A DNA stretch of 64,000 nt from Clostridia bacterium. GTDB taxonomy: Bacteria; Bacillota; Clostridia; RGIG6154. Positions 38,521-62,283 of the stretch are shown here, piece by piece. The stretch lies in assembly GCA_045593265.1 (NCBI GenBank), contig JAZNWH010000105.1, positions 19,216 through 83,215 on the forward strand, read 5' to 3'. The notes beneath the pieces are model-generated. The model had not been told where the DNA came from and searched no databases. It saw only the letters and a list, made by a program, of their open reading frames with translations. Position 1 is the stretch's first letter, and each line of letters begins with the position of its first letter. The translations under genes and the position numbers were made by a program.

Positions 38521-39036
38521 TTACTTTTCAACAGACTTCAAAAAGAGCTTTGCCTGACGCCTGTTTTTAAACTTAATTACTTTAACTCCTACAGCAGAAT
38601 CCAACATTTGCTTATAATTTTCGCTGTGTTGCTTTTTGAACTTTATGACATTCCTGTAAAGTGATAATTTCTGTTTATCAAAATGTTCAGGACAATTACC
38701 ACCCATATCAACTCTTGTTTTTCCGTAGTTTGCTATTATTCTTTTGGTTATTCCCCAAAGGCAAACAATAGTTGGAATGTCAAAATAAAAAACTGTATCG
38801 CAGTATTTTAATCTGTGAGGCAGAGTTCGGTTAAAGTTTCCATCAATAATCCATTCAGTTTTTTCTAATTCTTTTTGCAGTATAATGTCAAATTCCTCTC
38901 TATCAACATACTCCCAGTTTCCACTCCAAAATATTTTATCCAGATGCACAAGAGGTAATTTTGTTTTTTGAGCGAGTTTTCTTGCAAAAGTAGTTTTACC
39001 GCTCCCTGCATTTCCGATTATTAACACTCGTTTCAT
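38521..39036 (-). CDS. P-loop NTPase, topology-modulation/adenylate-kinase-like (FlaR/Tmp family)
   Basis: 171 aa. MKRVLIIGNAGSGKTTFARKL. Confidence 0.6.
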   Translation of the reverse strand: MKRVLIIGNAGSGKTTFARKLAQKTKLPLVHLDKIFWSGNWEYVDREEFDIILQKELEKTEWIIDGNFNRTLPHRLKYCDTVFYFDIPTIVCLWGITKRIIANYGKTRVDMGGNCPEHFDKQKLSLYRNVIKFKKQHSENYKQMLDSAVGVKVIKFKNRRQAKLFLKSVEK

Positions 39037-39136: not shown

Positions 39137-40651
39137 TCATTTGCTGTTACGAGTAGCATTAAATAAAGCCTCATGTATATTCCAATCACGGGAAACTAAA
39201 AGTTCTTCGGCTTCATTTTCATTTATCTTCAGTATTTCGCAAATCATAGCTACAGCTCTTTTCTTCAGTTTTATGTTTGATGGATTCATATGTGTCATAT
39301 AGTTTTGCCAAGTGCATCCCATTTTAACAAAAACTGCAGTAGAAAACATATTAAGTATCATTTTCTGGGCACTTCCTGCTTTCATTCGGGTAGAGCCTTT
39401 GATGACCTCTGCACCTGTCAACGCCTCTATTGCTATATCGGATAAATCTGCCATTTCTGTATCAAGGTTGTTGACGATTGCTCCCACCTTACAACCACAC
39501 TCTTTAGCTTTTTCCATAAATGCAACTACAAATGGTGCACGTCCTGCAGCAGAAATTCCGATAATTAAATCGTTTTTTGTACAGTTTTGTTTTTCAAATG
39601 CTGCAACACCTGCCTGGCGATTGTCTTCGCAACCTTCTGAGGCATTGGTAATGGCTTTTTCTCCTCCCGCAATTACAGCAGTTATGGTTTCTCTTGAAAC
39701 ACCATATGTCGGTGGACATTCTGCCGCATCGGCTACAGCCAGACGACCACTTGTGCCTGCACCACAGTATATAATACGTCCACCATTTTTCAAAGCTTCT
39801 ACCCCTGCATCAACTAATTTTGCAACCTGTGGAATACAGCTCTTAACAATTGCAGAAACTGATGCATCCTCTCTTTGAATTATTCGTAAAATTGATTGGG
39901 TTGAACCATCTGCTATTCTGTCAGAACGAATATTTCGTGTTTCGGTACGAACATAATTATTATCCCCTTTTTTAGGTATAAAGCTGTTATAATAACGAGT
40001 GATGGCTATAGGATTTGTAATAGCCTTTCCTATGACAACAGCATCTGCTCCTATATTAAAGGCTTCTCTTATATCCTCGCTGCCCCAGATACGCCCTTCT
40101 GCCACAACCTTACAAGGAAGTTTAGCATCAACAATCTGAGATAACAATGTAAAATCAGGCACATACAATTCGTCATCGGTATGTAATGCACCGGGAATAT
40201 ATCCTGCCAATGTAGTGGATACTGCATCAACTCCCATATTTGCAGCGTTAACTGCTTCTTCAAAAGTTGAAATGTCTGCCATAACAGGAATACCAAGTTC
40301 TTCGTGAATACGACGAATTAGTTCTCTGCGTTCTTCTGCAATATCGCTGGGGTAAAAGGTTGCGTCAAGGGCAATAATGCTTGCACCTGCCTCGTATATT
40401 TTTTTAGCACCTTCAAAATCAGGTGTGATTACTGTTCTGCCTGTGGAGTCTTTACGTTTATCAATACCGATAATAGGAATTGAAACACGTTTACGCATAG
40501 CACTTATGTCCTCTACACCGTTGGCACGTATTGCTGATGCACCTCCAATAGCAGCAGACTCTGCCATAAGTGCAAGTGCCTGAGAATTGCGGAAAGGGTT
40601 TCCTTCAAGTGCCTGTGCAGACACAATTAATCCTGTTGGAAAGTCAATCAT
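39137..40651 (-). CDS. bifunctional fusion: N-acetylmannosamine-6-phosphate 2-epimerase (NanE) domain + N-acetylmuramic acid 6-phosphate etherase (MurQ, SIS) domain
   Basis: Single 504-aa ORF. Residues 1 to about 225 are NanE-like (GLIVSAQ, AIRANGV, IPIIGIDKR, SIIALDATF, VSTTLAGY). Residues 228-504 are MurQ-like (TETRN..., GGRIIYCGAGTSGRLAVADAAECPPTYGV). Confidence 0.8.
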   Translation of the reverse strand: MIDFPTGLIVSAQALEGNPFRNSQALALMAESAAIGGASAIRANGVEDISAMRKRVSIPIIGIDKRKDSTGRTVITPDFEGAKKIYEAGASIIALDATFYPSDIAEERRELIRRIHEELGIPVMADISTFEEAVNAANMGVDAVSTTLAGYIPGALHTDDELYVPDFTLLSQIVDAKLPCKVVAEGRIWGSEDIREAFNIGADAVVIGKAITNPIAITRYYNSFIPKKGDNNYVRTETRNIRSDRIADGSTQSILRIIQREDASVSAIVKSCIPQVAKLVDAGVEALKNGGRIIYCGAGTSGRLAVADAAECPPTYGVSRETITAVIAGGEKAITNASEGCEDNRQAGVAAFEKQNCTKNDLIIGISAAGRAPFVVAFMEKAKECGCKVGAIVNNLDTEMADLSDIAIEALTGAEVIKGSTRMKAGSAQKMILNMFSTAVFVKMGCTWQNYMTHMNPSNIKLKKRAVAMICEILKINENEAEELLVSRDWNIHEALFNATRNSK

Positions 40652-41580
40652 TTATCTTTCGCTCCTTTAATATATAAATCTTTTGCAATTTTAAAAGTTC
40701 CTTTAATAAGACCGTCAGAAACATAGTGTATTTTAACATTGGGCAAAATTTGACTTACTGCAGCTTCAAAATACTCTTTCCAGAATTTACAGGAATGAAT
40801 AAGACCTCCCGTAACAACAATATTTGGAATTTCTCCTGTAAGCTTTTTCGCAGTACATACAACCAATTCCGAAAGCTTTTCACCGGAATACTTAAATATA
40901 TCAAGAGCTGTTTTATCGCCCTTTTCTGCAAATTTTGCAACTATTTTCGACAGAGAGGCAATGTTTTGCCTGTCAAGAGGATAAAGATTTCCTCGTATCT
41001 GGTCTCTTTTGTCTCTGTAAACTGTTGGGTCATCAGTTGCAGAAAGGGGTCTTATGCAATTACACAGTTCCTGTGTGAGAGGAGACAATTCTTCTGTATT
41101 ATCCAGTGCACGCAAACTCATACGAATTGCCTGAAGTCCGATATCATAGCCACTTCCGTCATCTCCTATATTTATTCCCCATCCACCTGTGATTACAAAA
41201 CCATTATCCGATTTTCCAACTGCAATTGCTCCCGTTCCTGCCATAAGAACAATGGGAGCATTATATTCTTCTCCTAATGCATAGGCAGCAGTACCTTCTG
41301 ATTCACGAAAAATTTTTAGTGGTGTATCAGGGAAAAACTTTTTGAAACAAAGTTTAACCTGCTCTGTGTTTCGTCCTCCAAGATTTATGGAAACAGCTCC
41401 GATATTTTCTTTATCTGGGATTTCGTTAATCTGTTTTTCAAGAGAAGGAAGTTCCAAAGTACTATCTACAGCACTTGCAATTCCACCTGAAACAGACTCA
41501 TGTATTATATTTCCTTCTATGTCTGTTATTTTAAGTCGTGTATTGGTACCACCAATATCAGCGATAAATAGATGTTTCAT
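40648..41580 (-). CDS. murK: BadF/BadG/BcrA/BcrD-type ATPase, MurNAc/GlcNAc kinase (MurK-like)
   Basis: 310 aa. N-terminal LFIADIGGTNTR and a DGSG motif. MurQ context as in the Clostridium murK locus. Confidence 0.65.
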   Translation of the reverse strand: MKHLFIADIGGTNTRLKITDIEGNIIHESVSGGIASAVDSTLELPSLEKQINEIPDKENIGAVSINLGGRNTEQVKLCFKKFFPDTPLKIFRESEGTAAYALGEEYNAPIVLMAGTGAIAVGKSDNGFVITGGWGINIGDDGSGYDIGLQAIRMSLRALDNTEELSPLTQELCNCIRPLSATDDPTVYRDKRDQIRGNLYPLDRQNIASLSKIVAKFAEKGDKTALDIFKYSGEKLSELVVCTAKKLTGEIPNIVVTGGLIHSCKFWKEYFEAAVSQILPNVKIHYVSDGLIKGTFKIAKDLYIKGAKDK

Positions 41581-41592
41581 ATTTCTCCTTTC

Positions 41593-43482
41593 TTAAAACA
41601 ATCCTTTTTTCAAAGCAACACCAAAGCCAAGACCCATAAGAATTTCAGCTACAGTCCATCCGCTTTCTATACAGCATGGCCCCCAACCCACATCGTGAGG
41701 CATACCATATATTTCCATACGCTTAAGGTCAAGGCATCTTGCCCATGCACCATCATTTTTTTTATCATCGCTTACAATTTGTGCATCTGACATAAACTTA
41801 GCTATATCTTCCCATTTTTTCAGGAAGATTACATCATTGGTTACATAATAAGCATAAGAAAACCCTAAAGGCAACCAATTAAGAGAATACAGCATCTCAG
41901 CTATTTCATTTCCATTATCTGCAAGCATAGAAGATTCTGTGCCTGCTGTTCTGCTTCTATATGCTGTATAGCCAGGGTCAACTTCGGTATATCCACCGGT
42001 TTTATGGCGATAGATTTCAAGACGCTGACAAACATCATAGAGCCATTGTTTATGTTCTTCACTTCCTGTAACCTGATAAAGGCACGCAAGTGGAAAAATG
42101 AGTCTGCACAATTCTTCCGTTTCGCTTATTGCACGCATAGTTTCGGGATATACTCCCATAATGGTTGACAAGCCTTTTACAGCCGTTTCCTTGTATATTT
42201 CCTTGTGGTTGAGCTGATATGCAAGAAGAAGTGCAGCGCTGTAGTAGGCATTACGATGTGCACAGTACTGATTTGAAGGTTTTGATGTCATTTCCTTTAT
42301 TTTTTCATCAGTAAGATAGCTTGTATGAACACCATGTTCCATAAGTCCGTCAGTACCCGTTATACTGATAAGAAAATCAAGAGCTGCTTCAACCTGAGGC
42401 AACAGACTCATATCTTTGGTATACATCATATAAAATAAAGTACTGATAACAGCTCTTCCTGTATCATCTCCGTATACGGTACACCACGCACCTTCTGTCC
42501 ATCTGAGCATTCCTGAAAATTTCCCTGTTTTAATCTGCATTTTATCAAAAATGAAACTCGAAAGATTCTTGTAAACAGCAAGGGATTCTTTGTTATTCGA
42601 CAGAATATAATCAAAAAGATATGCACCTGCTATCTCCCCTACACAATCAACACGAACATTGTTTCTTTCAGCCTGAACACCATCAGGAGTAATTGGATGA
42701 GCCATACCCTCTCTTGCACCATCTTTTCCGTTGTCAAGAAGAATGTTGCATCCATCAAACCATGCCATTCCTCTGTCAAAAGTGCCCTGTGCATCACAGT
42801 TACTGCCAAGAGTATAGTATGGAGCGGGCATCTGTATTTGCTCTACTCCTAAATGATTAAGAATAATTTCAAGAATTCCACACCAGGATTCAAAAGGAGC
42901 AAATCTTGCTTTTACAAAGTTTGAAATACGAAATGAACATACAAGTCTGTTTTCGTTATAATACCAGAGTCGCCAGTCTCTTGTTGCAATCTCATCAGTT
43001 TTTATTTTTGACGCATCTATGTGGTCGTGGCTGACAATATGCCCACCATTATAGAGTATTGGATATGCATTATCAGGTAAAAAAATATGGTTGCACCCTC
43101 TATTTGCCTGGCTGTCAAGCAAATCACCAAATGTCAAGCTTTCGGTATCGCTTCCGATATATACATATCTGTTCATAGTATCACTCATAGAATCTCTGCC
43201 ATCATTGTAATCATCACCATCGGTATAAGTATATCCAAGGCTTGCACACCATTCGTAGAATATCGGCTTACCACTTTCAGCGAACTCCTCCGTTTTAACA
43301 CGAAGTGATGCACTAAGCACACGTGGTCTTGTATTCTCTGTTCCACAAAGCAAAGCTATAGCCGAATAGACAGATAAATCTTTGAGTTCAGCTTCCTTGA
43401 ACGAGAGCATTTCACATTTTCCTGAGTTCATTAAAATATTGCTTAAATCACTTTTGTTATCACTTATAATCAATATAGACAT
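41593..43482 (-). CDS. uncharacterised 629-aa cytoplasmic protein (N-terminal ~220-aa domain + probable alpha/alpha-toroid-like C-terminal domain)
   Basis: No signal peptide, TM or recognisable catalytic motif. First gene of the MurNAc operon, divergent from murR. Contains a GWGPCCIESGW segment. Confidence 0.6.
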   Translation of the reverse strand: MSILIISDNKSDLSNILMNSGKCEMLSFKEAELKDLSVYSAIALLCGTENTRPRVLSASLRVKTEEFAESGKPIFYEWCASLGYTYTDGDDYNDGRDSMSDTMNRYVYIGSDTESLTFGDLLDSQANRGCNHIFLPDNAYPILYNGGHIVSHDHIDASKIKTDEIATRDWRLWYYNENRLVCSFRISNFVKARFAPFESWCGILEIILNHLGVEQIQMPAPYYTLGSNCDAQGTFDRGMAWFDGCNILLDNGKDGAREGMAHPITPDGVQAERNNVRVDCVGEIAGAYLFDYILSNNKESLAVYKNLSSFIFDKMQIKTGKFSGMLRWTEGAWCTVYGDDTGRAVISTLFYMMYTKDMSLLPQVEAALDFLISITGTDGLMEHGVHTSYLTDEKIKEMTSKPSNQYCAHRNAYYSAALLLAYQLNHKEIYKETAVKGLSTIMGVYPETMRAISETEELCRLIFPLACLYQVTGSEEHKQWLYDVCQRLEIYRHKTGGYTEVDPGYTAYRSRTAGTESSMLADNGNEIAEMLYSLNWLPLGFSYAYYVTNDVIFLKKWEDIAKFMSDAQIVSDDKKNDGAWARCLDLKRMEIYGMPHDVGWGPCCIESGWTVAEILMGLGFGVALKKGLF

Positions 43483-43503
43483 ATGTAATCCTCCTTGTGA
43501 TTA

Positions 43504-43535
43504 ATTGTTACATTAATATATTTTTATGTAACAAT
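43504..43535. promoter_or_regulatory. candidate MurR (RpiR) operator: perfect inverted repeat in divergent promoter region
   Basis: ATTGTTACAT-N12-ATGTAACAAT between the divergent 629-aa operon and murR. Confidence 0.45.
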
Positions 43536-43665
43536 TATACATTTATATATTGTAAATGTCAATACTTTTTGATAAAAGTATTGCAAAAATAATAAAAACA
43601 TTGTAGAATTAAAGAAACAATGTTACAAAAAATATTATTTCTGAACAGAAAGGTTTTATTTTACT

Positions 43666-44508
43666 ATGAGGAAAGATCTTGTCCAATTTATCACAGAAAA
43701 ATATACATCTATGACAAATAGTGAAAAAACTATAGCAGATTATATAATCAACAATCTCGAACACGTGCTTACCATAAGTGTGCAGGCACTGTCTGCAGAA
43801 CTAAACATCAGTGTCGCAACAATTGTTCGTTTTGCTCAACATTTAGGCTTTGACGGATATAAAGAATTCAGGCTGTGTCTTGCACAACTTGGTAATGAAC
43901 ACGAAGATTTTATTTTAGATTTTCACAAAAACGAAAACTCCCCCGATGCACAGATTTCAAAAATGCTTATATCCTGTTCAGAATGTTTAAACCTTACACG
44001 TCAAAATATAGATTATGATACTTTAACTGATATTGTCCAGGCAATTCACAGTGCTGAAAAAATAGCCTTCTTCGGTGTCGGAACTTCATATATAGTTTGT
44101 CAGGATGCATCCGTTAAATTCAAACGAATAGGAATTAATGCAGAATGTGCCTGTGAATCAACATCGGCATCACTCATTTTACTAAACATGAAAAAAGGTG
44201 ATGTGGTTTTTGGTATTTCTCATTCGGGAAACAACGAAACTGTAGAGAAAATATTAAAAATGGCACAAAAGATGGGACTGACAACAATTGCAGTAACAAC
44301 TTTCAGCAACACTAATATTTGCAAAACAGCAGATTACACGTTATTTACACAAACAAGAGAAAGTCCTTTGCACAAAATTGCCATCACATCCCGTGTAAGT
44401 CAATTCGCTATGATGGATTCTCTGTTTATGGCATATCTTACAATCAATTATGACCAGTGTATCAGTAACATCGAAAAAACTCATGAAATAAGTGAAGGTT
44501 TAAAATAG
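43666..44508 (+). CDS. murR: RpiR family transcriptional regulator (MurR-like; HTH_6 + SIS)
   Basis: 280 aa. Confidence 0.8.
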   Translation: MRKDLVQFITEKYTSMTNSEKTIADYIINNLEHVLTISVQALSAELNISVATIVRFAQHLGFDGYKEFRLCLAQLGNEHEDFILDFHKNENSPDAQISKMLISCSECLNLTRQNIDYDTLTDIVQAIHSAEKIAFFGVGTSYIVCQDASVKFKRIGINAECACESTSASLILLNMKKGDVVFGISHSGNNETVEKILKMAQKMGLTTIAVTTFSNTNICKTADYTLFTQTRESPLHKIAITSRVSQFAMMDSLFMAYLTINYDQCISNIEKTHEISEGLK

Positions 44509-44524
44509 AATATGCTTTAACTTA

Positions 44525-44560
44525 AAACTGCCCGGCTGAGTTTCAGCCGGGCAGTTTTTA
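44525..44560. terminator. bidirectional terminator between murR and the MATE gene
   Basis: AAAACTGCCCGGCTGA-gtttc-AGCCGGGCAGTTTTT. Confidence 0.7.
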
Positions 44561-45940
44561 ATTTTTATAAGAATTTTGTTCAAGCTTTATATATTGGTCA
44601 GATTTCCACTTGCCTGTAAGGAAAATAACTGTTGCAAATATCAATTCAGTAATATACGCACCGCTAAGTGCTATATGCACCCCATAAATTCGAATTTCGT
44701 AAGGCAATACAGCAAACATAATATAAGCATATACAACATAAGAAATTGCATAAATCAAAGTTGAAATAAACATAAGTGTTCCTGAACCGACCGCCCTGAA
44801 AATTCCGTGGAAAAGGTTATTGAATACATTGAAAAGTATGAAAGGAAATAAAATTCTTATCGTATTAACACTCACGGTAAAGCTTTGAGCGTCGTTAACA
44901 GGATCTAAAAACAAGGCAGTAAACTGCTTGGCAAAAATCATAAAGAATGAAAGAGTTACGCCAAAAAATACCAATCCCTGCGTTGTACCGATTTTTATCC
45001 CTGTCTTTATCTTATCAATTTTCCCCGCTCCCATAGCCTGAGCCACAAAGTTTGTATTTGCTTTAGTTGAATTCTGATAAACTGCCAAAATTAAACTTCT
45101 CGCTTTATTTGCTACTGCATAGCCTGAAAGTGCTGCTGTTGCACAGGTGTTGGTAAGAGGCGAAACCAACGCAGTACAAGCATACATTGCCATCTGCTGA
45201 AACATTGATGGGGTTCCATAGTCTACCGACTTTTTAAACATTTCTTTATTGAATTTAATCCCTCTTATTTTTACCCCCATATTTTTAAACAGTTTTATAT
45301 AAATATAAATATAAACAATTGTTGTAACCAATGCTGCAATTACCGTTGCCAGAGCACTATACCCGATTCCTTTGTGGAAAACGGATAAAAACAGATAGTT
45401 CAGTCCCACATTAATAATCCCTGTAATTACTGAGGCTGTAAGTGGAAGTTTGGTAAGCCCCAATCCGTTTGAAATATATGTAAATCCCCAGTTAAACTGA
45501 AAAACTATATATCCTAAAGCGTATGTTCTGAAATATAGCTCGGCATTTTGGTAAACCTCATCATTTACATTCAATATGTCAAAAATCTTGTCGCAAAACA
45601 AATTACATCCAAGTGAAATAATAATTGCAAAAGAAAGTGTAATCAAAAAATTCACTTTAATAACATTTAACATTTTTTCATATTCACTTTTACCAAAGAG
45701 CACCGAAACATATATTCCTATACCTGTAAGATATCCGAAAAAAATTGAATTTAAAAGCTCAATCAACTCAGCAGTAACTGCTGTTGCAGCAAATGCATCA
45801 CTTCCGATAAACTTGCCTATCATCATTGAATTAACAAAACTGTATGATTGTGAAAGAAGTGCAGATAAAATAAGAGGAATTGCGAATAACAAATACTTTT
45901 TGCGCATATTCCCTTCATATAATTTTTCGATTTTCTTCAT
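44558..45940 (-). CDS. MATE/MOP-superfamily transporter
   Basis: 460 aa, 12 TM. Confidence 0.8.
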   Translation of the reverse strand: MKKIEKLYEGNMRKKYLLFAIPLILSALLSQSYSFVNSMMIGKFIGSDAFAATAVTAELIELLNSIFFGYLTGIGIYVSVLFGKSEYEKMLNVIKVNFLITLSFAIIISLGCNLFCDKIFDILNVNDEVYQNAELYFRTYALGYIVFQFNWGFTYISNGLGLTKLPLTASVITGIINVGLNYLFLSVFHKGIGYSALATVIAALVTTIVYIYIYIKLFKNMGVKIRGIKFNKEMFKKSVDYGTPSMFQQMAMYACTALVSPLTNTCATAALSGYAVANKARSLILAVYQNSTKANTNFVAQAMGAGKIDKIKTGIKIGTTQGLVFFGVTLSFFMIFAKQFTALFLDPVNDAQSFTVSVNTIRILFPFILFNVFNNLFHGIFRAVGSGTLMFISTLIYAISYVVYAYIMFAVLPYEIRIYGVHIALSGAYITELIFATVIFLTGKWKSDQYIKLEQNSYKN

Positions 45941-47001: not shown

Positions 47002-47871
47002 TCAATATGGGACAACAATATTTTTTGCCACTTTGATTTCTTCATCTGTTGGTAAGGTCTGTGGCAGCGTATTTTTCATATTTAACGCAGCATATTTTGA
47101 GCCAGCATAATTATGATACGGCAAAACTTTTACCCTTGTTATATTTTGAAGCTGTTTTAAAGATTCTGCAATTTTTTCAATTTGGTCAGAATTATATTCA
47201 GGTACATATGGTATACGAATTTCTGTTTCTTTGCCCAAAGAATCGATATATTTAAGATTATCCAATATAATTTTATTGCTTTGTCCTGTGCATTTAACAT
47301 GCACATTCTCATCAATTGCCTTAATATCATATAAAAATGTATCGGTGTAAGGCAAAACCTTATCAATACTTTCTTTTGGTACATATCCACAGGTATCAAC
47401 TGCTGTATTTATACCTTCTTTTTTTAACATATGTAAAAGCTCTGCACAAAAATCTGCCTGCATAAGACATTCTCCGCCCGAAAGTGTTACTCCGCCGCCG
47501 CTTGTTTCATAAAAGTCCTTATCTTCAAGTAATATCGGCAAAAGTTCATCTACTGTCATTTCCTTGCCGTAAAATTTCAGTGCTTCGCCAAGACAAGCCT
47601 TTTCACATTTTCCGCAAGCAACACATAAATCTCTTTCAAAAATATGACCTTCTCGTGTGATTTTGTGTGCACCTGATGGGCATACAAAAACGCATTCGCC
47701 GCAACTGATGCACTTGTTTTCGTAATATGCAAGCTGAGGCTTAAAATCAATGCTTTCGGGATTGTGGCACCACACACATTTTAGTGGACAGCCTTTGAAA
47801 AATACCGTTGTTCTTATTCCGTCACCATCGTGTACAGCAAAATGTTTTATATCAGAAATTAATGCTTTCAT
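47002..47871 (-). CDS. glycyl-radical enzyme activating protein (radical SAM, with two ferredoxin-like 4Fe-4S motifs)
   Basis: 289 aa. Radical [11 protein letters not shown], then [12 protein letters not shown] and [11 protein letters not shown]. Overlaps the GRE by 4 nt. Confidence 0.85.
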
Positions 47872-50105
47872 TTAGCATTCTCCGCTCTTAAAATATATGC
47901 ATCCTGCTCTTTTTTGCTCATATTATTCCAAAGAGTATTCCAACCACAAACTCTAACCTGCAGATTTTGATATTTTTCCGGATTTTTTTGTGCATCACGC
48001 AGAGTGTCTGTATTAAAAATATTGAACTGAATTGACTGACCGCCTTTGTTAAGATAGGTCATAAGAACACCTTTTAGCACATTTAATCCATCCTCGCCTT
48101 CAACTGCACTCGGGTGAAGCATAACATCAACACAAAACGATTCGTGATAATCAGACGGAATGAGCTTAGTCGCAGACTCAACCAAAGCCGTAACACCTTT
48201 TTTATCCATACTGACAACGGGAGAAGCATTTTTAGACAGTTCTTCTCCTTTTAATCTTCCATCCGGCAAAGCTCCGGTTTTTTCTCCCTGGTTTATAAAA
48301 GCACGGGCAGTGTGGAATATCGCTTTATACACACCGCCTCTGCCATTAGGTACATTATTCACCTTATTTGCAAAATAGCTTGCCATAGCTGATGCGTAAG
48401 TATCTGCCACAGCATCGTTGTTACCATATTTATGTGGCGATTTTTTTATTTGAATCTGTAATTTTTCGTAACCCTTCCAGTTAACTTCCAAAACCTTTGC
48501 AAGCTCAGACAGCGTTATTTCTTTTTTATCAAAAACAAATTCTTTTACCGCCATAATGCTGTCAACCGCACTGGCAAAACCGCAGTTAAGCATCGCATTG
48601 TTATTGAACTTAACACCACCGCCGTATCCGTCTCTGCCGTTTTTCAAAGAAGTTTCAATTGTCGCAGAATACATAGATGACGGATTTACAAATGCAAGAA
48701 AACGTTCTGCATCATTTGTGATTTTCATACTTTGCTCAATGAGATATTCCCATTGTTTTAAAAAGGCAAAATAGAAATCTTCAAATGTTTTGATTTCTGA
48801 AATCTCACCTGTTTTTACACCAACCTGTTTTTTAATCCCATAATCATACCCATTAGTAAACACAAACTCCACGGCTTTTGCCACATTTACATATCCCGAA
48901 GATGAACAAACCTCATTTGCCCTGACTCCTGTTTCATAACATCCTCTGATATCATAGTTAATCGCTTCTTCATAAGTAGCTCCATAACCCATTATAGCTT
49001 TTATCATAGCAGGCTCACAACAAAATACAATGCTGGCATTTTTTCGGCGAACCATATCAAAAGCTTTATTTAAGATTTTATCAGGTGTATTTTTATTTAT
49101 CTTCAACTGTATTTTAGGGTTATAGATTTCAAGCTCATCATATACATCAAGAATTTCGTATGAAAGTTCGTTGTACTTCGTGTTGCTGTTTAAATCGGTG
49201 CCACCCATATAAAACGGTTGCCCCCAATAGTTGCCTATGGCAGACCACTGCATAAAAAAGTAAGATAAATAATTTCTTATATCCTCTTTTGTGCATTTCC
49301 CCGACTCCAGATCATTTTTATAAAATCCGTACAACGTATTATCAAGACCGTTGCCTAGAGAACGAACCTGATAACTGTCTATTGATTCAGATATTATAAA
49401 AAATATATAAATAAACTGTAATGCCTCATAAAAACAAGTTGGATGTCCATCACGAAGATTTTTTAAACACTCAGCTATTTGAGGTGCCTTTTCAAAGGTT
49501 AATTCGCAAGCAGTACGATACATTCTGTCAATTAAATCAATAATTGCTGTGTATTGAATTTCAATGCCATCGAAAAATGCTTCTGTTTCTTTAGTCATAG
49601 TTTTGTTCTCACTGTGCATTTTACGGTATTCTCTTGCTCTTTCACGAATGCCAACAAACCCTAATTCCATTAAAGATTTCCAGTCAGGAACAACATGATC
49701 ATAGTCTGTACGTAGTGTTACTGCACCTGAATTGTTAAAATCATTGGAGCACTCCATAGTCTCGGGATTTCTTAAGGTGTGTGATTCTTTTTCCCATTTT
49801 TTGAAGGTGCTTTCGTTAGCTAAACGATTCAGCGAATAAAGACCTACAAAATAATCGTGCTCATTTATATACAAACGTTGATTTTCAAGAACATATTTAA
49901 TGGCTTTTGCTCTTACAATCGGGTGAGGTAAATTTTCGTTCTCCTTCGAAAGCTGTTCAAGTCCTTTTAACAGTTCCTCATCAACTATCCCACTTTCCTC
50001 TATATAGCCTGTTCCGTGATATGCCATACGGCTAAATGCATCAAATTCTTTTTCGGGATCGTGATATTTTCGTTCAATAAAATATCTGTCTGCAGAATTA
50101 ATCAT
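47868..50105 (-). CDS. glycyl radical enzyme, PFL2/glycerol-dehydratase-like clade, substrate unknown
   Basis: 745 aa from MINSADRY; RBS AGGTGGAG. The ORF could extend to 50129. C-terminal glycyl motif LQVRVCGWNT. Cys loop IRGCYETG sits 332 residues upstream of the radical Gly. Confidence 0.85.
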   Translation of the reverse strand: MINSADRYFIERKYHDPEKEFDAFSRMAYHGTGYIEESGIVDEELLKGLEQLSKENENLPHPIVRAKAIKYVLENQRLYINEHDYFVGLYSLNRLANESTFKKWEKESHTLRNPETMECSNDFNNSGAVTLRTDYDHVVPDWKSLMELGFVGIRERAREYRKMHSENKTMTKETEAFFDGIEIQYTAIIDLIDRMYRTACELTFEKAPQIAECLKNLRDGHPTCFYEALQFIYIFFIISESIDSYQVRSLGNGLDNTLYGFYKNDLESGKCTKEDIRNYLSYFFMQWSAIGNYWGQPFYMGGTDLNSNTKYNELSYEILDVYDELEIYNPKIQLKINKNTPDKILNKAFDMVRRKNASIVFCCEPAMIKAIMGYGATYEEAINYDIRGCYETGVRANEVCSSSGYVNVAKAVEFVFTNGYDYGIKKQVGVKTGEISEIKTFEDFYFAFLKQWEYLIEQSMKITNDAERFLAFVNPSSMYSATIETSLKNGRDGYGGGVKFNNNAMLNCGFASAVDSIMAVKEFVFDKKEITLSELAKVLEVNWKGYEKLQIQIKKSPHKYGNNDAVADTYASAMASYFANKVNNVPNGRGGVYKAIFHTARAFINQGEKTGALPDGRLKGEELSKNASPVVSMDKKGVTALVESATKLIPSDYHESFCVDVMLHPSAVEGEDGLNVLKGVLMTYLNKGGQSIQFNIFNTDTLRDAQKNPEKYQNLQVRVCGWNTLWNNMSKKEQDAYILRAENAK

Positions 50106-50217
50106 ATAATCTCCACCTTTCAAACGCATTTTAGCATAAAAAGAAATTTAATACAATGAATTAAAAGAAACATTTGACTTTTTAGAAACAAAATTATATA
50201 ATAAATACGGTGATTAT

Positions 50218-50988
50218 ATGATTAATTTTATGAAACATGATTTTATTATTGATAAAATTGAGCTTGCATGTATAGTAAAAGCCGGAAAAGGTTCAATGAT
50301 TCACAAAAACAGAGCAAGCAATGGATTGGCTCTGTTTTTAGGTGGCGAAAGAACTTTCTGCTTTGATGAGAAAAAGTTTAAGGTTACCAAAAACACAATC
50401 GTGTATTTTCCAAAAGGCTCAAACTACGTGATTAAAGAAAGAGAAGCTTCTGATTGCTATGCAATTAACTTTCAAATGCCTGATAACGTATTTTTTGAGC
50501 CGTTTGCATTTAAAATAAAAAATCTTAACACATATTTAGAAAACTTCAAAAACAGTCAGAAAATATGGGATAAAAAATCTACGGGGTATTTTTCGAAAGT
50601 TAAATCTGAGCTTTACAGCATAATTTACAATATGCAGTCAGAATATCTTATTCCGTACGGTAATTCATCTGTAATTAAGCCAGCTATTGATTATATACAC
50701 TCGAATTATTATAAAGAGAACATAAGTGTTGTGCATCTGGCATCACTCTGCGATATCAGCGTTGTGCATTTAAGAAACTGCTTTATTAAAAATTTCGCCC
50801 TATCGCCTGTTAAATATATAAATTTTCTTAAGCTAACTCGTGCAAAAGAGTTGCTTGAGTCAGGAATGTATACTGTTGGTGATGCTTGCTTCTTATCCGG
50901 CTATAATGACGAAAGCTATTTTTCCCGTGAATTTAAAAAGTCTTTTAAAAAATCACCAAAAGAATATGCAAAAGCATCCCGTAAATAG
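50218..50988 (+). CDS. AraC family transcriptional regulator (cupin-like sensor + HTH), divergent from GRE
   Basis: 256 aa with a C-terminal AraC HTH. Confidence 0.8.
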   Translation: MINFMKHDFIIDKIELACIVKAGKGSMIHKNRASNGLALFLGGERTFCFDEKKFKVTKNTIVYFPKGSNYVIKEREASDCYAINFQMPDNVFFEPFAFKIKNLNTYLENFKNSQKIWDKKSTGYFSKVKSELYSIIYNMQSEYLIPYGNSSVIKPAIDYIHSNYYKENISVVHLASLCDISVVHLRNCFIKNFALSPVKYINFLKLTRAKELLESGMYTVGDACFLSGYNDESYFSREFKKSFKKSPKEYAKASRK

Positions 50989-61386: not shown

Positions 61387-62283
61387 TTATTTTATCTTTT
61401 TAATACCTCTGAACAATTCGTCAAGTTCAGCATACATAGAAAGTCTGAGAGCTCTTATTGCCTGTTCATCGACTACCTGACAATGCCCCATTGAAAAACC
61501 TCTCTGCTCAAAAACAAGCTTATATCCACTTGGGAACATAACAGAATCCGCAAGTCTTAGAAGTTTGAGTGCCTTACGGTTCAAATCCTGTGCCTCGGCA
61601 ATATGTCCTGCATTAAAAAGCTCATATATTTTTGCATTAATTTCGGGAACAATTACCGAAAATGCCGTAACCGAACCCACGCAACCTGCAAGAAGCGCCG
61701 GTACAATACAGTCATCTGTACCTGTCATAAGTGAAAAATCCGGACGGTTCCTGCGGACTATATCTGCTTCGTGAGCTATCTGCTTCATATTTCCTGAAGA
61801 ATCCTTCATGCCGACAATACGTCTTTCCTGAAGCAGTGTTTCAAAAGACGGAAGCTCTATAGTATTGGTAAACATCGGAATTTTGTAAAGAACAAGGTCG
61901 ATAATATTCTGGTCTGCCATATACTTATAGTACCTTATAACATCATCCTGTTTCATGGTAAAATAATACGGTGGACAAATCATCGCAGCATCATATCCAT
62001 ACTCCTGCGCTGCCTTCAAATATTTTATAGAAGTTGCAGGATTGGGATCTGAAGCACCAGCAAGAAGTTGTTTCTTGCCACGAAGATGCTTCGCTGTAAA
62101 CGCCATAAGTTCAATATTTTCTTCAGGAGAAAGACTTACAAACTCTCCCGTTGTGCCACAGGCAAAAAATCCCTGAATATCAGATTTTAATAAAAAATCC
62201 AATTGAATTTCAAATGCATTATAGTCAACTTTTCCCTCTTCGGTAAAAGGAGTTAACAGAACACCATATGGTCCTCTAAACAT
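61387..62283 (-). CDS. DapA/NanA-family class I aldolase (dihydrodipicolinate synthase family)
   Basis: 298 aa. GTTGE motif. Confidence 0.8.
   Translation of the reverse strand: MFRGPYGVLLTPFTEEGKVDYNAFEIQLDFLLKSDIQGFFACGTTGEFVSLSPEENIELMAFTAKHLRGKKQLLAGASDPNPATSIKYLKAAQEYGYDAAMICPPYYFTMKQDDVIRYYKYMADQNIIDLVLYKIPMFTNTIELPSFETLLQERRIVGMKDSSGNMKQIAHEADIVRRNRPDFSLMTGTDDCIVPALLAGCVGSVTAFSVIVPEINAKIYELFNAGHIAEAQDLNRKALKLLRLADSVMFPSGYKLVFEQRGFSMGHCQVVDEQAIRALRLSMYAELDELFRGIKKIK

Follow-up and report, generated by a model that had tools for sequence, protein, structure and literature searches.

The ManNAc-GlcNAc linker of wall teichoic acid (WTA) is joined to C6 of MurNAc by a phosphodiester, and the glycerophosphodiesterase GlpQ trims WTA down to this linker (PMC7086022). 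In the literature searched, no enzyme is described for the breakdown of the ManNAc-GlcNAc linker, whether the cell recycles its own wall or gut and soil bacteria scavenge it, and the terms 'N-acetylmannosaminidase' and 'mannosaminidase' do not occur. The enzymes NamZ (DUF1343), MupG (DUF871) and NagZ (GH3), which release amino sugars in cell-wall recycling, act at the point of a pathway at which a glycosidase precedes a sugar kinase and MurQ or NanE, leading to GlcNAc-6-P. The 629-residue protein described here, called X below, is unrelated to these three enzymes by sequence, without a Pfam match, and is proposed to occupy a like position, with ManNAc as its product rather than MurNAc or GlcNAc. 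The best mechanistic analogue of X would be glycoside hydrolase family GH76 (Bacillus circulans Aman6; Bacteroides BT2949 and BT3792). BcGH76 works by a retaining mechanism in which Asp124 serves as nucleophile and Asp125 as acid/base (PMC8362039). X shares the (α/α)6 barrel of the GH76 enzymes, but its similarity to them is non-significant (∼12% identity, E above 0.04, no PF03663 match). Moreover, X is cytoplasmic, carries an additional N-terminal domain resembling class I glutamine amidotransferases (GATase1-like), and is found in a genomic context of ManNAc metabolism, not of yeast mannan.

X is encoded in a 64,000-nucleotide stretch of DNA from a Clostridia bacterium, referred to as the window. 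Its gene, the largest of a three-gene operon, comes first, is followed by a BadF-type sugar kinase and a NanE::MurQ fusion, and is divergent from an RpiR/MurR-family regulator (Table 1). The position of X at the head of a murR-divergent operon, noted in an earlier sequence-only reading of the locus, is borne out by the open reading frames and by domain models. Only 12 nucleotides separate X from the kinase gene, and the start of the fusion gene overlaps the kinase gene by 4 nucleotides. The kinase shows a weak match to the NagK model NF046058. Residues 5–225 of the fusion protein form a ManNAc-6-P 2-epimerase domain (NanE) and residues 232–501 a MurNAc-6-P etherase domain (MurQ); the MurQ domain scores 325 bits against NF003915 (cut-off 168), and the fusion scores 218 bits against NF002231 (cut-off 189). 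The next downstream gene (38521–39036) has a strong promoter-like site of its own, and the operon is therefore read as comprising three genes. No transporter gene is present in the X operon of the window. The palindrome between the −10 box and the ribosome-binding site occurs once in the window, against 0.01 copies expected by chance, and is kept at the same position 5′ of an orthologue with 83% identity (L002, L083–85). It is a candidate operator for the divergent RpiR regulator. The N-terminus of X, MSILIISDNKSDLSNILMNSGK, contains no hydrophobic signal sequence as read from the translation, in agreement with a cytoplasmic location.

Table 1. Features of the X locus, with positions in the window
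Feature	Position	Strand	Basis
X, 629-aa open reading frame, ATG start	41593..43482	minus	ORF listing
N-terminal domain of X, ~residues 1–215, class I glutamine-amidotransferase-like (GATase1)/ThuA-like fold	42838..43482	minus	predicted structure
C-terminal (α/α)6 barrel of X, ~residues 222–629, presumed catalytic domain	41596..42819	minus	predicted structure
Asp339-Asp340, candidate catalytic pair (translation YGDD)	42463..42468	minus	conservation and weak GH76 alignment
GWGPCC segment, residues 599–604	41671..41688	minus	residue conservation
BadF/BadG/BcrA/BcrD-family sugar kinase (N-acetylhexosamine kinase type), operon gene 2	40648..41580	minus	PF01869 E 7e-21
NanE::MurQ fusion	39137..40651	minus	PF04131 E 5e-49 (NanE domain); NF003915; NF002231
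RpiR/MurR-family regulator, HTH_6 + SIS, divergent from X	43666..44508	plus	Pfam/NCBIfam models
Promoter-like site TTGACA-17-TATAAT upstream of X, 12/12 sigma-70 consensus	43534..43562	minus	consensus match only
Palindrome TGTTACA-N14-TGTAACA between −10 box and ribosome-binding site	43506..43533	none	unique in window
Ribosome-binding site AAGGAGG, 7 nt 5′ of X ATG	43490..43496	minus	read from sequence

Searches with X against Pfam-A and NCBIfam return zero families at E values up to 0.1, and a comparison with PDB sequences at this threshold, made with X alone and with a profile of its family, gives no match. These results are in line with the sequence-only reading, which considered X uncharacterised and found no GH3 (NagZ), DUF1343 (NamZ), DUF871 (MupG), amidase or NagA motifs; a confident match to a characterised family unrelated to amino-sugar metabolism was not found either. 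The close homologues of X, of which there are at least 148, are all labelled 'hypothetical', and no informative name was found in any source for any relative, including the distant ones. No relevant literature on DUF4127 and DUF4855 was found in the literature searched. Full-length relatives with 36–98% identity are present in more than 500 species genomes, which places the X reading frame far beyond chance, and further relatives occur on more than 500 metagenome contigs. An exhaustive HMM search yields 933 family representatives at 50% identity. A definition of the family would improve the annotation of several hundred genomes. The carriers are mainly Clostridia (rumen, gut and digester MAGs) and Bacilli (Paenibacillus, Cohnella, Oceanobacillus, Radiobacillus and Rossellomorea), with Victivallales as an occasional carrier; the closest named relative, at 76%, is from Faecousia sp. 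Some distant relatives have no more than the barrel in common with X; the CBM32, Laminin_G and fn3 modules that they carry are typical of glycan-cleaving enzymes.

The AlphaFold2 model of X, built on a 55-sequence alignment, has a pLDDT of 94.9 and a pTM of 0.93, and divides the protein into two domains. An α-helical toroid had been suspected in the C-terminal half, and in the model this region indeed forms an (α/α)6 barrel. The barrel is as similar to that of GH76 as to those of GH88 and AGE-family enzymes, with ∼10% identity, and GH127 is not among the best 60 matches; the fold comparison of the model thus assigns X a fold class, not a family. With its twelve-helix barrel and conserved polar residues at one end of the inner helices, the predicted structure has the characteristics of the six-hairpin glycosidase-like superfold, and X is best explained as a member of a new, unnamed family within this superfold. 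The N-terminal domain, read as an accessory domain, conserves D12, E77, R105 and H152 but not the customary Cys nucleophile. The Cys-His-Glu triad of class I glutamine amidotransferases, with its nucleophile Cys at the elbow after strand 4, is absent from X: the Cys79 position differs between family members, and the invariant residue is E77. GATase1-like accessory domains of the same fold are found in GH42, GH164 and a Paenibacillus α-L-fucosidase, in which the catalytic domain is not known to be an (α/α)6 barrel. The combination of a GATase1-like domain and an (α/α)6 barrel was not seen among the solved structures searched.

The X family contains 58 invariant alignment columns. The invariant polar residues of the barrel are D279, D339, D340, H409, E457, N535, W536, W609 and E613, with H409 as the only invariant barrel histidine. 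In the model, invariant acidic, aromatic and His residues are located at the N-termini of helices 2, 4, 6, 8, 10 and 12, and the invariant cluster sits at one mouth of the barrel. The active sites of six-hairpin enzymes are usually found at this mouth, at the N-termini of the inner helices. Most of the invariant barrel residues are retained in a distant tier of relatives with 20–24% identity, as are E258, R277, E500, E516, R582, D585, D597 and W600. No invariant Cys is seen in the family; C280, beside D279, is conserved at 90% or more.

Catalysis in X would take place in the acidic pocket that the even-numbered helices of the barrel form with their N-termini. The proposed roles of Asp339 and Asp340 are those of the GH76 pair, nucleophile and acid/base. 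The Asp339-Asp340 pair is invariant in all 55 family members and is kept in ∼90% of the distant relatives. In a search of PDB sequences with a profile of 67 deliberately diverse family sequences, the best matches are GH76 α-1,6-mannanases, with non-significant E values of 0.04–0.9. The corresponding HMMER alignment, likewise non-significant (E 0.05–0.9), is in register and places Y337-G-D339-D340 of X on the GH76 'FNDD' motif, of which the DD position reads FNDN in the GH76 D125N crystal variant. The same DD-to-DD match is obtained with 70% probability when X is compared by hhalign to a 93-residue GH76 segment. This segment also matches other six-hairpin families, out of register; such weak cross-matches arise because the hairpin motif is common to all six-hairpin families. 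A homologue search seeded with the segment found nothing, and a PDB search with it gave only Aman6 variants among the alignments listed. On the basis of the conservation and the weak alignment, we propose with low-to-moderate confidence that X uses a GH76-like Asp-Asp dyad, formed by D339 and D340.

The GWGPCC segment, singled out previously in the C-terminal half, is present, and its G599 and W600 are invariant. In place of C603, other family members carry W, H, F or R, and in place of C604 they carry A, S or V, so that the two cysteines are no functional hallmark. Together with a precomputed PF07944 tag on the relative P0045, it had made a GH127-like Cys/Zn enzyme a candidate, which was rejected. 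The Cys nucleophile and Zn-ligand cysteines of GH127/GH146 (PF07944) have no conserved counterpart in X, and the PF07944 matches of relatives are sub-threshold or borderline, partial and out of order along the barrel, with none for X itself. X also has no match to GH88/GH105 (PF07470; unsaturated glucuronyl/rhamnogalacturonyl hydrolases), for which P0045 scores 22.5 bits against a cut-off of 26.6. Membership of the AGE superfamily, which includes N-acylglucosamine 2-epimerase, cellobiose 2-epimerase, mannose isomerase and YihS, was rejected as well: profile-profile comparison by hhalign with seven AGE-family proteins gives a probability of 42%, out of register, X has no PF07221 match, and the catalytic Arg/His/Glu/His set of these enzymes is not recoverable in X. 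Genuine AGE genes are found beside X.

In the clade of the window, the order X-kinase-NanE does not vary over the range of 98% to 65% identity. The divergent RpiR regulator, the BadF kinase and NanE accompany X at 86, 83, 76, 72, 71 and 65% identity, and the kinase is detected by tblastn in L001 and L003. A MurQ domain or fusion is found only with X orthologues of at least 76% identity, and is lacking from the 71% and 65% orthologues. In the nearest outgroup (52%) X is found with an MBL-fold protein and an AGE-type 2-epimerase; here, as in several further lineages, the place of NanE is taken by the AGE-type GlcNAc/ManNAc 2-epimerase family, which is not homologous to it. An AGE-family gene adjoins X in L091, is directly upstream of X and translationally coupled in L063, is directly downstream in L055, and lies near X in L059, L101 and one human-gut lineage. 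At distant Bacilli and metagenome loci, with 37–43% identity, X is clustered with NanE, RpiR, a ROK or BadF kinase and an ABC importer (L030, L035, L060, L064, L069, L075, L127 and L170/L172). A MurQ-like gene placed directly after X is seen in L035, one of these distant loci, as a separate gene, and in Paenibacillus montanisoli. In the tree of X the associations with ManNAc genes fall in separate clades. The AGE family as defined by PF07221 also includes cellobiose 2-epimerases and mannose isomerases, and the AGE neighbours of X need not all use ManNAc.

After de-replication of the loci at 60% identity, 53 lineages remain for counting genes within the examined flank. NanE (7) or an AGE-family gene (7) is near X in 14 of these lineages, the RpiR regulator in 8 and MurQ in 2. 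By rough reasoning, a gene present in one or two copies would be expected within a flank of this kind in about 1% of cases. The recurrent partner of X is thus ManNAc metabolism, not MurNAc, and the signal is clear, though partial. Approximately three quarters of the lineages have no ManNAc-related neighbour of X, many homologues stand alone among unrelated genes, and in 77 species genomes the 138 immediate neighbour genes of X contain 150 Pfam families. The lineages without ManNAc partners point either to more than one specificity within the family or to partner genes located elsewhere. The murQ/murK neighbourhood expected from the window is accordingly not a family-wide property. A NanA-type aldolase (sialic-acid lyase) is not found near X in any NanE locus, and the window contains a single DHDPS-family gene, ∼19 kb away (61387–62283). 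The NanE loci are therefore not sialic-acid clusters, which removes a canonical nan cluster from consideration, and their ManNAc must come from elsewhere. All NanE loci share X, and no other uncharacterised candidate enzyme is present in every one of them.

The most plausible role of X is that of a glycosidase-like enzyme which feeds the downstream amino-sugar genes, as the sequence-only reading had anticipated in calling it a candidate novel (phospho)glycosidase or lyase. That reading had predicted release of MurNAc and/or ManNAc from an imported conjugate; comparative genomics favours the ManNAc part of this prediction and speaks against the MurNAc part. We give about an even chance to X being a cytoplasmic enzyme that releases ManNAc from a glycoside. 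X would hydrolyse an imported ManNAc-containing oligosaccharide, possibly a cell-wall fragment, to yield free ManNAc. The downstream BadF-type kinase would phosphorylate this sugar, and the resulting ManNAc-6-P would be turned into GlcNAc-6-P by NanE. Lineages that have an AGE-type epimerase instead would reach the equivalent result without phosphorylation. Widespread in Bacillota, unannotated, and found repeatedly with ManNAc-converting enzymes and without a sialic-acid lyase, the X family provides a concrete, testable candidate for this activity. It is possible, though rather doubtful, that X both founds a new family of glycoside hydrolases and is the first N-acetylmannosaminidase to be described.

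Several other functions have to be weighed against ManNAc release. X might instead liberate MurNAc, for example by exo-muramidase action on MurNAc-GlcNAc or muropeptides inside the cell, and so be a functional analogue of NamZ or MupG that feeds MurK and MurQ, as the sequence-only reading proposed. The operons of the window and its closest relatives, in which X is joined by a MurQ domain and by a BadF-type kinase of the family called murK in that reading, and the MurQ-like gene following X in P. montanisoli would fit such an enzyme. It is nevertheless improbable, given the rarity of MurQ across the lineages, the retention of NanE and kinase without MurQ in the 71% and 65% orthologues, and the AGE replacements, which fit ManNAc and not MurNAc. 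An equally improbable function is that of an AGE-like 2-epimerase or isomerase, which would not be a hydrolase but would convert (N-acetyl)hexosamines or disaccharides between the gluco and manno configurations. In addition to the out-of-register profile comparison, the AGE Arg/His/Glu/His set is unmatched, X has a single invariant barrel histidine, such an activity would be redundant where X adjoins a bona fide AGE enzyme or NanE, as it often does, and the carbohydrate-binding modules of the distant relatives are typical of glycan-cleaving enzymes.

It is also unlikely that X is a GH88/GH105-type hydratase, another lyase-coupled enzyme or a phosphorylase, acting on an unsaturated or modified sugar such as a polysaccharide lyase product or a phosphodiester- or pyruvyl-substituted ManNAc. 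No lyase genes recur beside X, a GH127-style Cys-Cys pair is not conserved in the family, and the presence of the kinase argues that the product is a free, unphosphorylated sugar. Finally, the family could be functionally heterogeneous, with the X protein of the window acting on a non-amino-sugar glycan and its place in the operon being incidental or regulatory. The variety of neighbours elsewhere, which include fucosidases, GH2, GH3, GH32, GH95, GH123 and rhamnose isomerase, and the many solitary homologues are consistent with this explanation. It is made highly improbable for the window by the translational coupling and by the strict conservation of X-kinase-NanE, which share a single promoter and a single RpiR regulator, between 98% and 65% identity, as well as by the recurrence of the X-kinase-NanE partnership in distant Bacilli.

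If X releases ManNAc, the most specific guess at its substrate is the ManNAc-β-1,4-GlcNAc linker of wall teichoic acid or a secondary cell-wall polymer. This assignment to a teichoic-acid-type linker is tentative, and we hold it to be well short of an even chance. The linkage unit could then be divided among the neighbouring enzymes, with a GDPD glycerophosphodiesterase acting on the GroP chain, X on ManNAc-GlcNAc, the kinase and NanE, or AGE, on ManNAc, and MurQ on the MurNAc-6-P end. A linker substrate would explain both the GDPD partners of X and the late recruitment of MurQ, as MurNAc-6-P represents the other end of the linkage. If true, X would supply a step in the recycling and scavenging of teichoic acids and cell-wall polymers for which no described enzyme was found in the literature searched; even if the substrate guess is wrong, X would represent a new carbohydrate-active family with an unusual GATase1-like plus (α/α)6 architecture. 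The GDPD gene is located directly upstream of X in L058, L118, L120 and L122, and in P0114 it is fused to or contiguous with X. The adjacency of GDPD to X is concentrated in one large rumen/gut lineage. In L122 an additional gene of the Fe-dependent alcohol/glycerol(-phosphate) dehydrogenase family is present.

The arrangement of NanE and MurQ across the loci of X, the uncharacterised 629-aa protein, differs among orthologous operons. Fusion of the two enzymes into a single polypeptide is confined to orthologous operons in which X shares at least 76% identity (loci L001-3 and L083-85). The orthologous loci at 71% and 65% identity contain a standalone NanE, and both lack MurQ. In Paenibacillus montanisoli (L035), NanE and MurQ are encoded by separate genes, one on either side of X.

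Between the -10 box and the ribosome-binding site of X lies a perfect 7+7 palindrome, TGTTACA-N14-TGTAACA, which occurs only once in the 64-kb window (0.01 occurrences expected) and is retained at an unchanged position upstream of the 83% orthologue. This palindrome probably serves as an operator of the divergent RpiR regulator. The small P-loop ORF immediately downstream of the operon probably forms a separate transcription unit, because it is preceded by its own promoter-like site. The three genes of the X operon encode no importer. Genes for a glycyl-radical enzyme, its activase and an AraC regulator adjoin the operon, and this synteny is kept in the 83% relative (L083), which contains two such pairs. 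A MATE/Polysacc_synt/MurJ-like gene, convergent with the RpiR gene, has no evident connection to the X operon.

Coordinates of features in the window, in loci of X homologues from other genomes (L-numbers) and in an X-related protein (P-number)
Feature	Location	Strand
Small P-loop NTPase/kinase-like ORF	window 38521-39036	-
Its 11/12 promoter-like site, extended -10	window 39094-39066	
NanE::MurQ fusion, 504 aa	window 39137-40651	-
Palindrome upstream of X	window 43506-43533	
Strong bidirectional terminator-like hairpin	window 44524-44558	
MATE/Polysacc_synt/MurJ-like membrane protein	window 44558-45940	-
Glycyl-radical enzyme (PFL-like, 753 aa), radical-SAM activase, AraC regulator	window 47002-50988	
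GDPD glycerophosphodiesterase, directly upstream of X homologue	L058 668-1441	
Same	L118 3684-4490	
Same	L120 3719-4525	
Same	L122 7094-7867	
GDPD fused to or contiguous with X	P0114 residues 630-720	
MBL-fold protein, 535 aa, weak Lactamase_B match	L091 3792-5399	
DUF4127, DUF4855 (+CBM32) genes accompanying X	L060 9923-13217	
Same	L081 4298-6775	

At more distant loci X has other partners. Besides the GDPD gene, L122 contains an Fe-ADH-family dehydrogenase gene two genes downstream, and together these suggest a glycerol-phosphate theme. In L091, an outgroup locus at 52% identity, the MBL-fold gene is translationally coupled and placed between X and an AGE-family epimerase; its product may act as a phosphodiesterase or esterase in the pathway of X. 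X is accompanied by DUF4127 and DUF4855 (+CBM32) genes in Oceanobacillus, and DUF4855 is likewise found with X in Paenibacillus; a literature search on these two families yielded no publication on either. L060 further holds Gfo/Idh/MocA oxidoreductases and xylose-isomerase-like TIM-barrel proteins.

The distant tier of the superfamily (P0162-P0267, 20–24% identity) comprises multidomain proteins of 700–1900 aa, every one unannotated, in which modules of the CBM32, Laminin_G, fn3 and Ig-like types occur; these proteins probably represent secreted forms of the X-type catalytic barrel.
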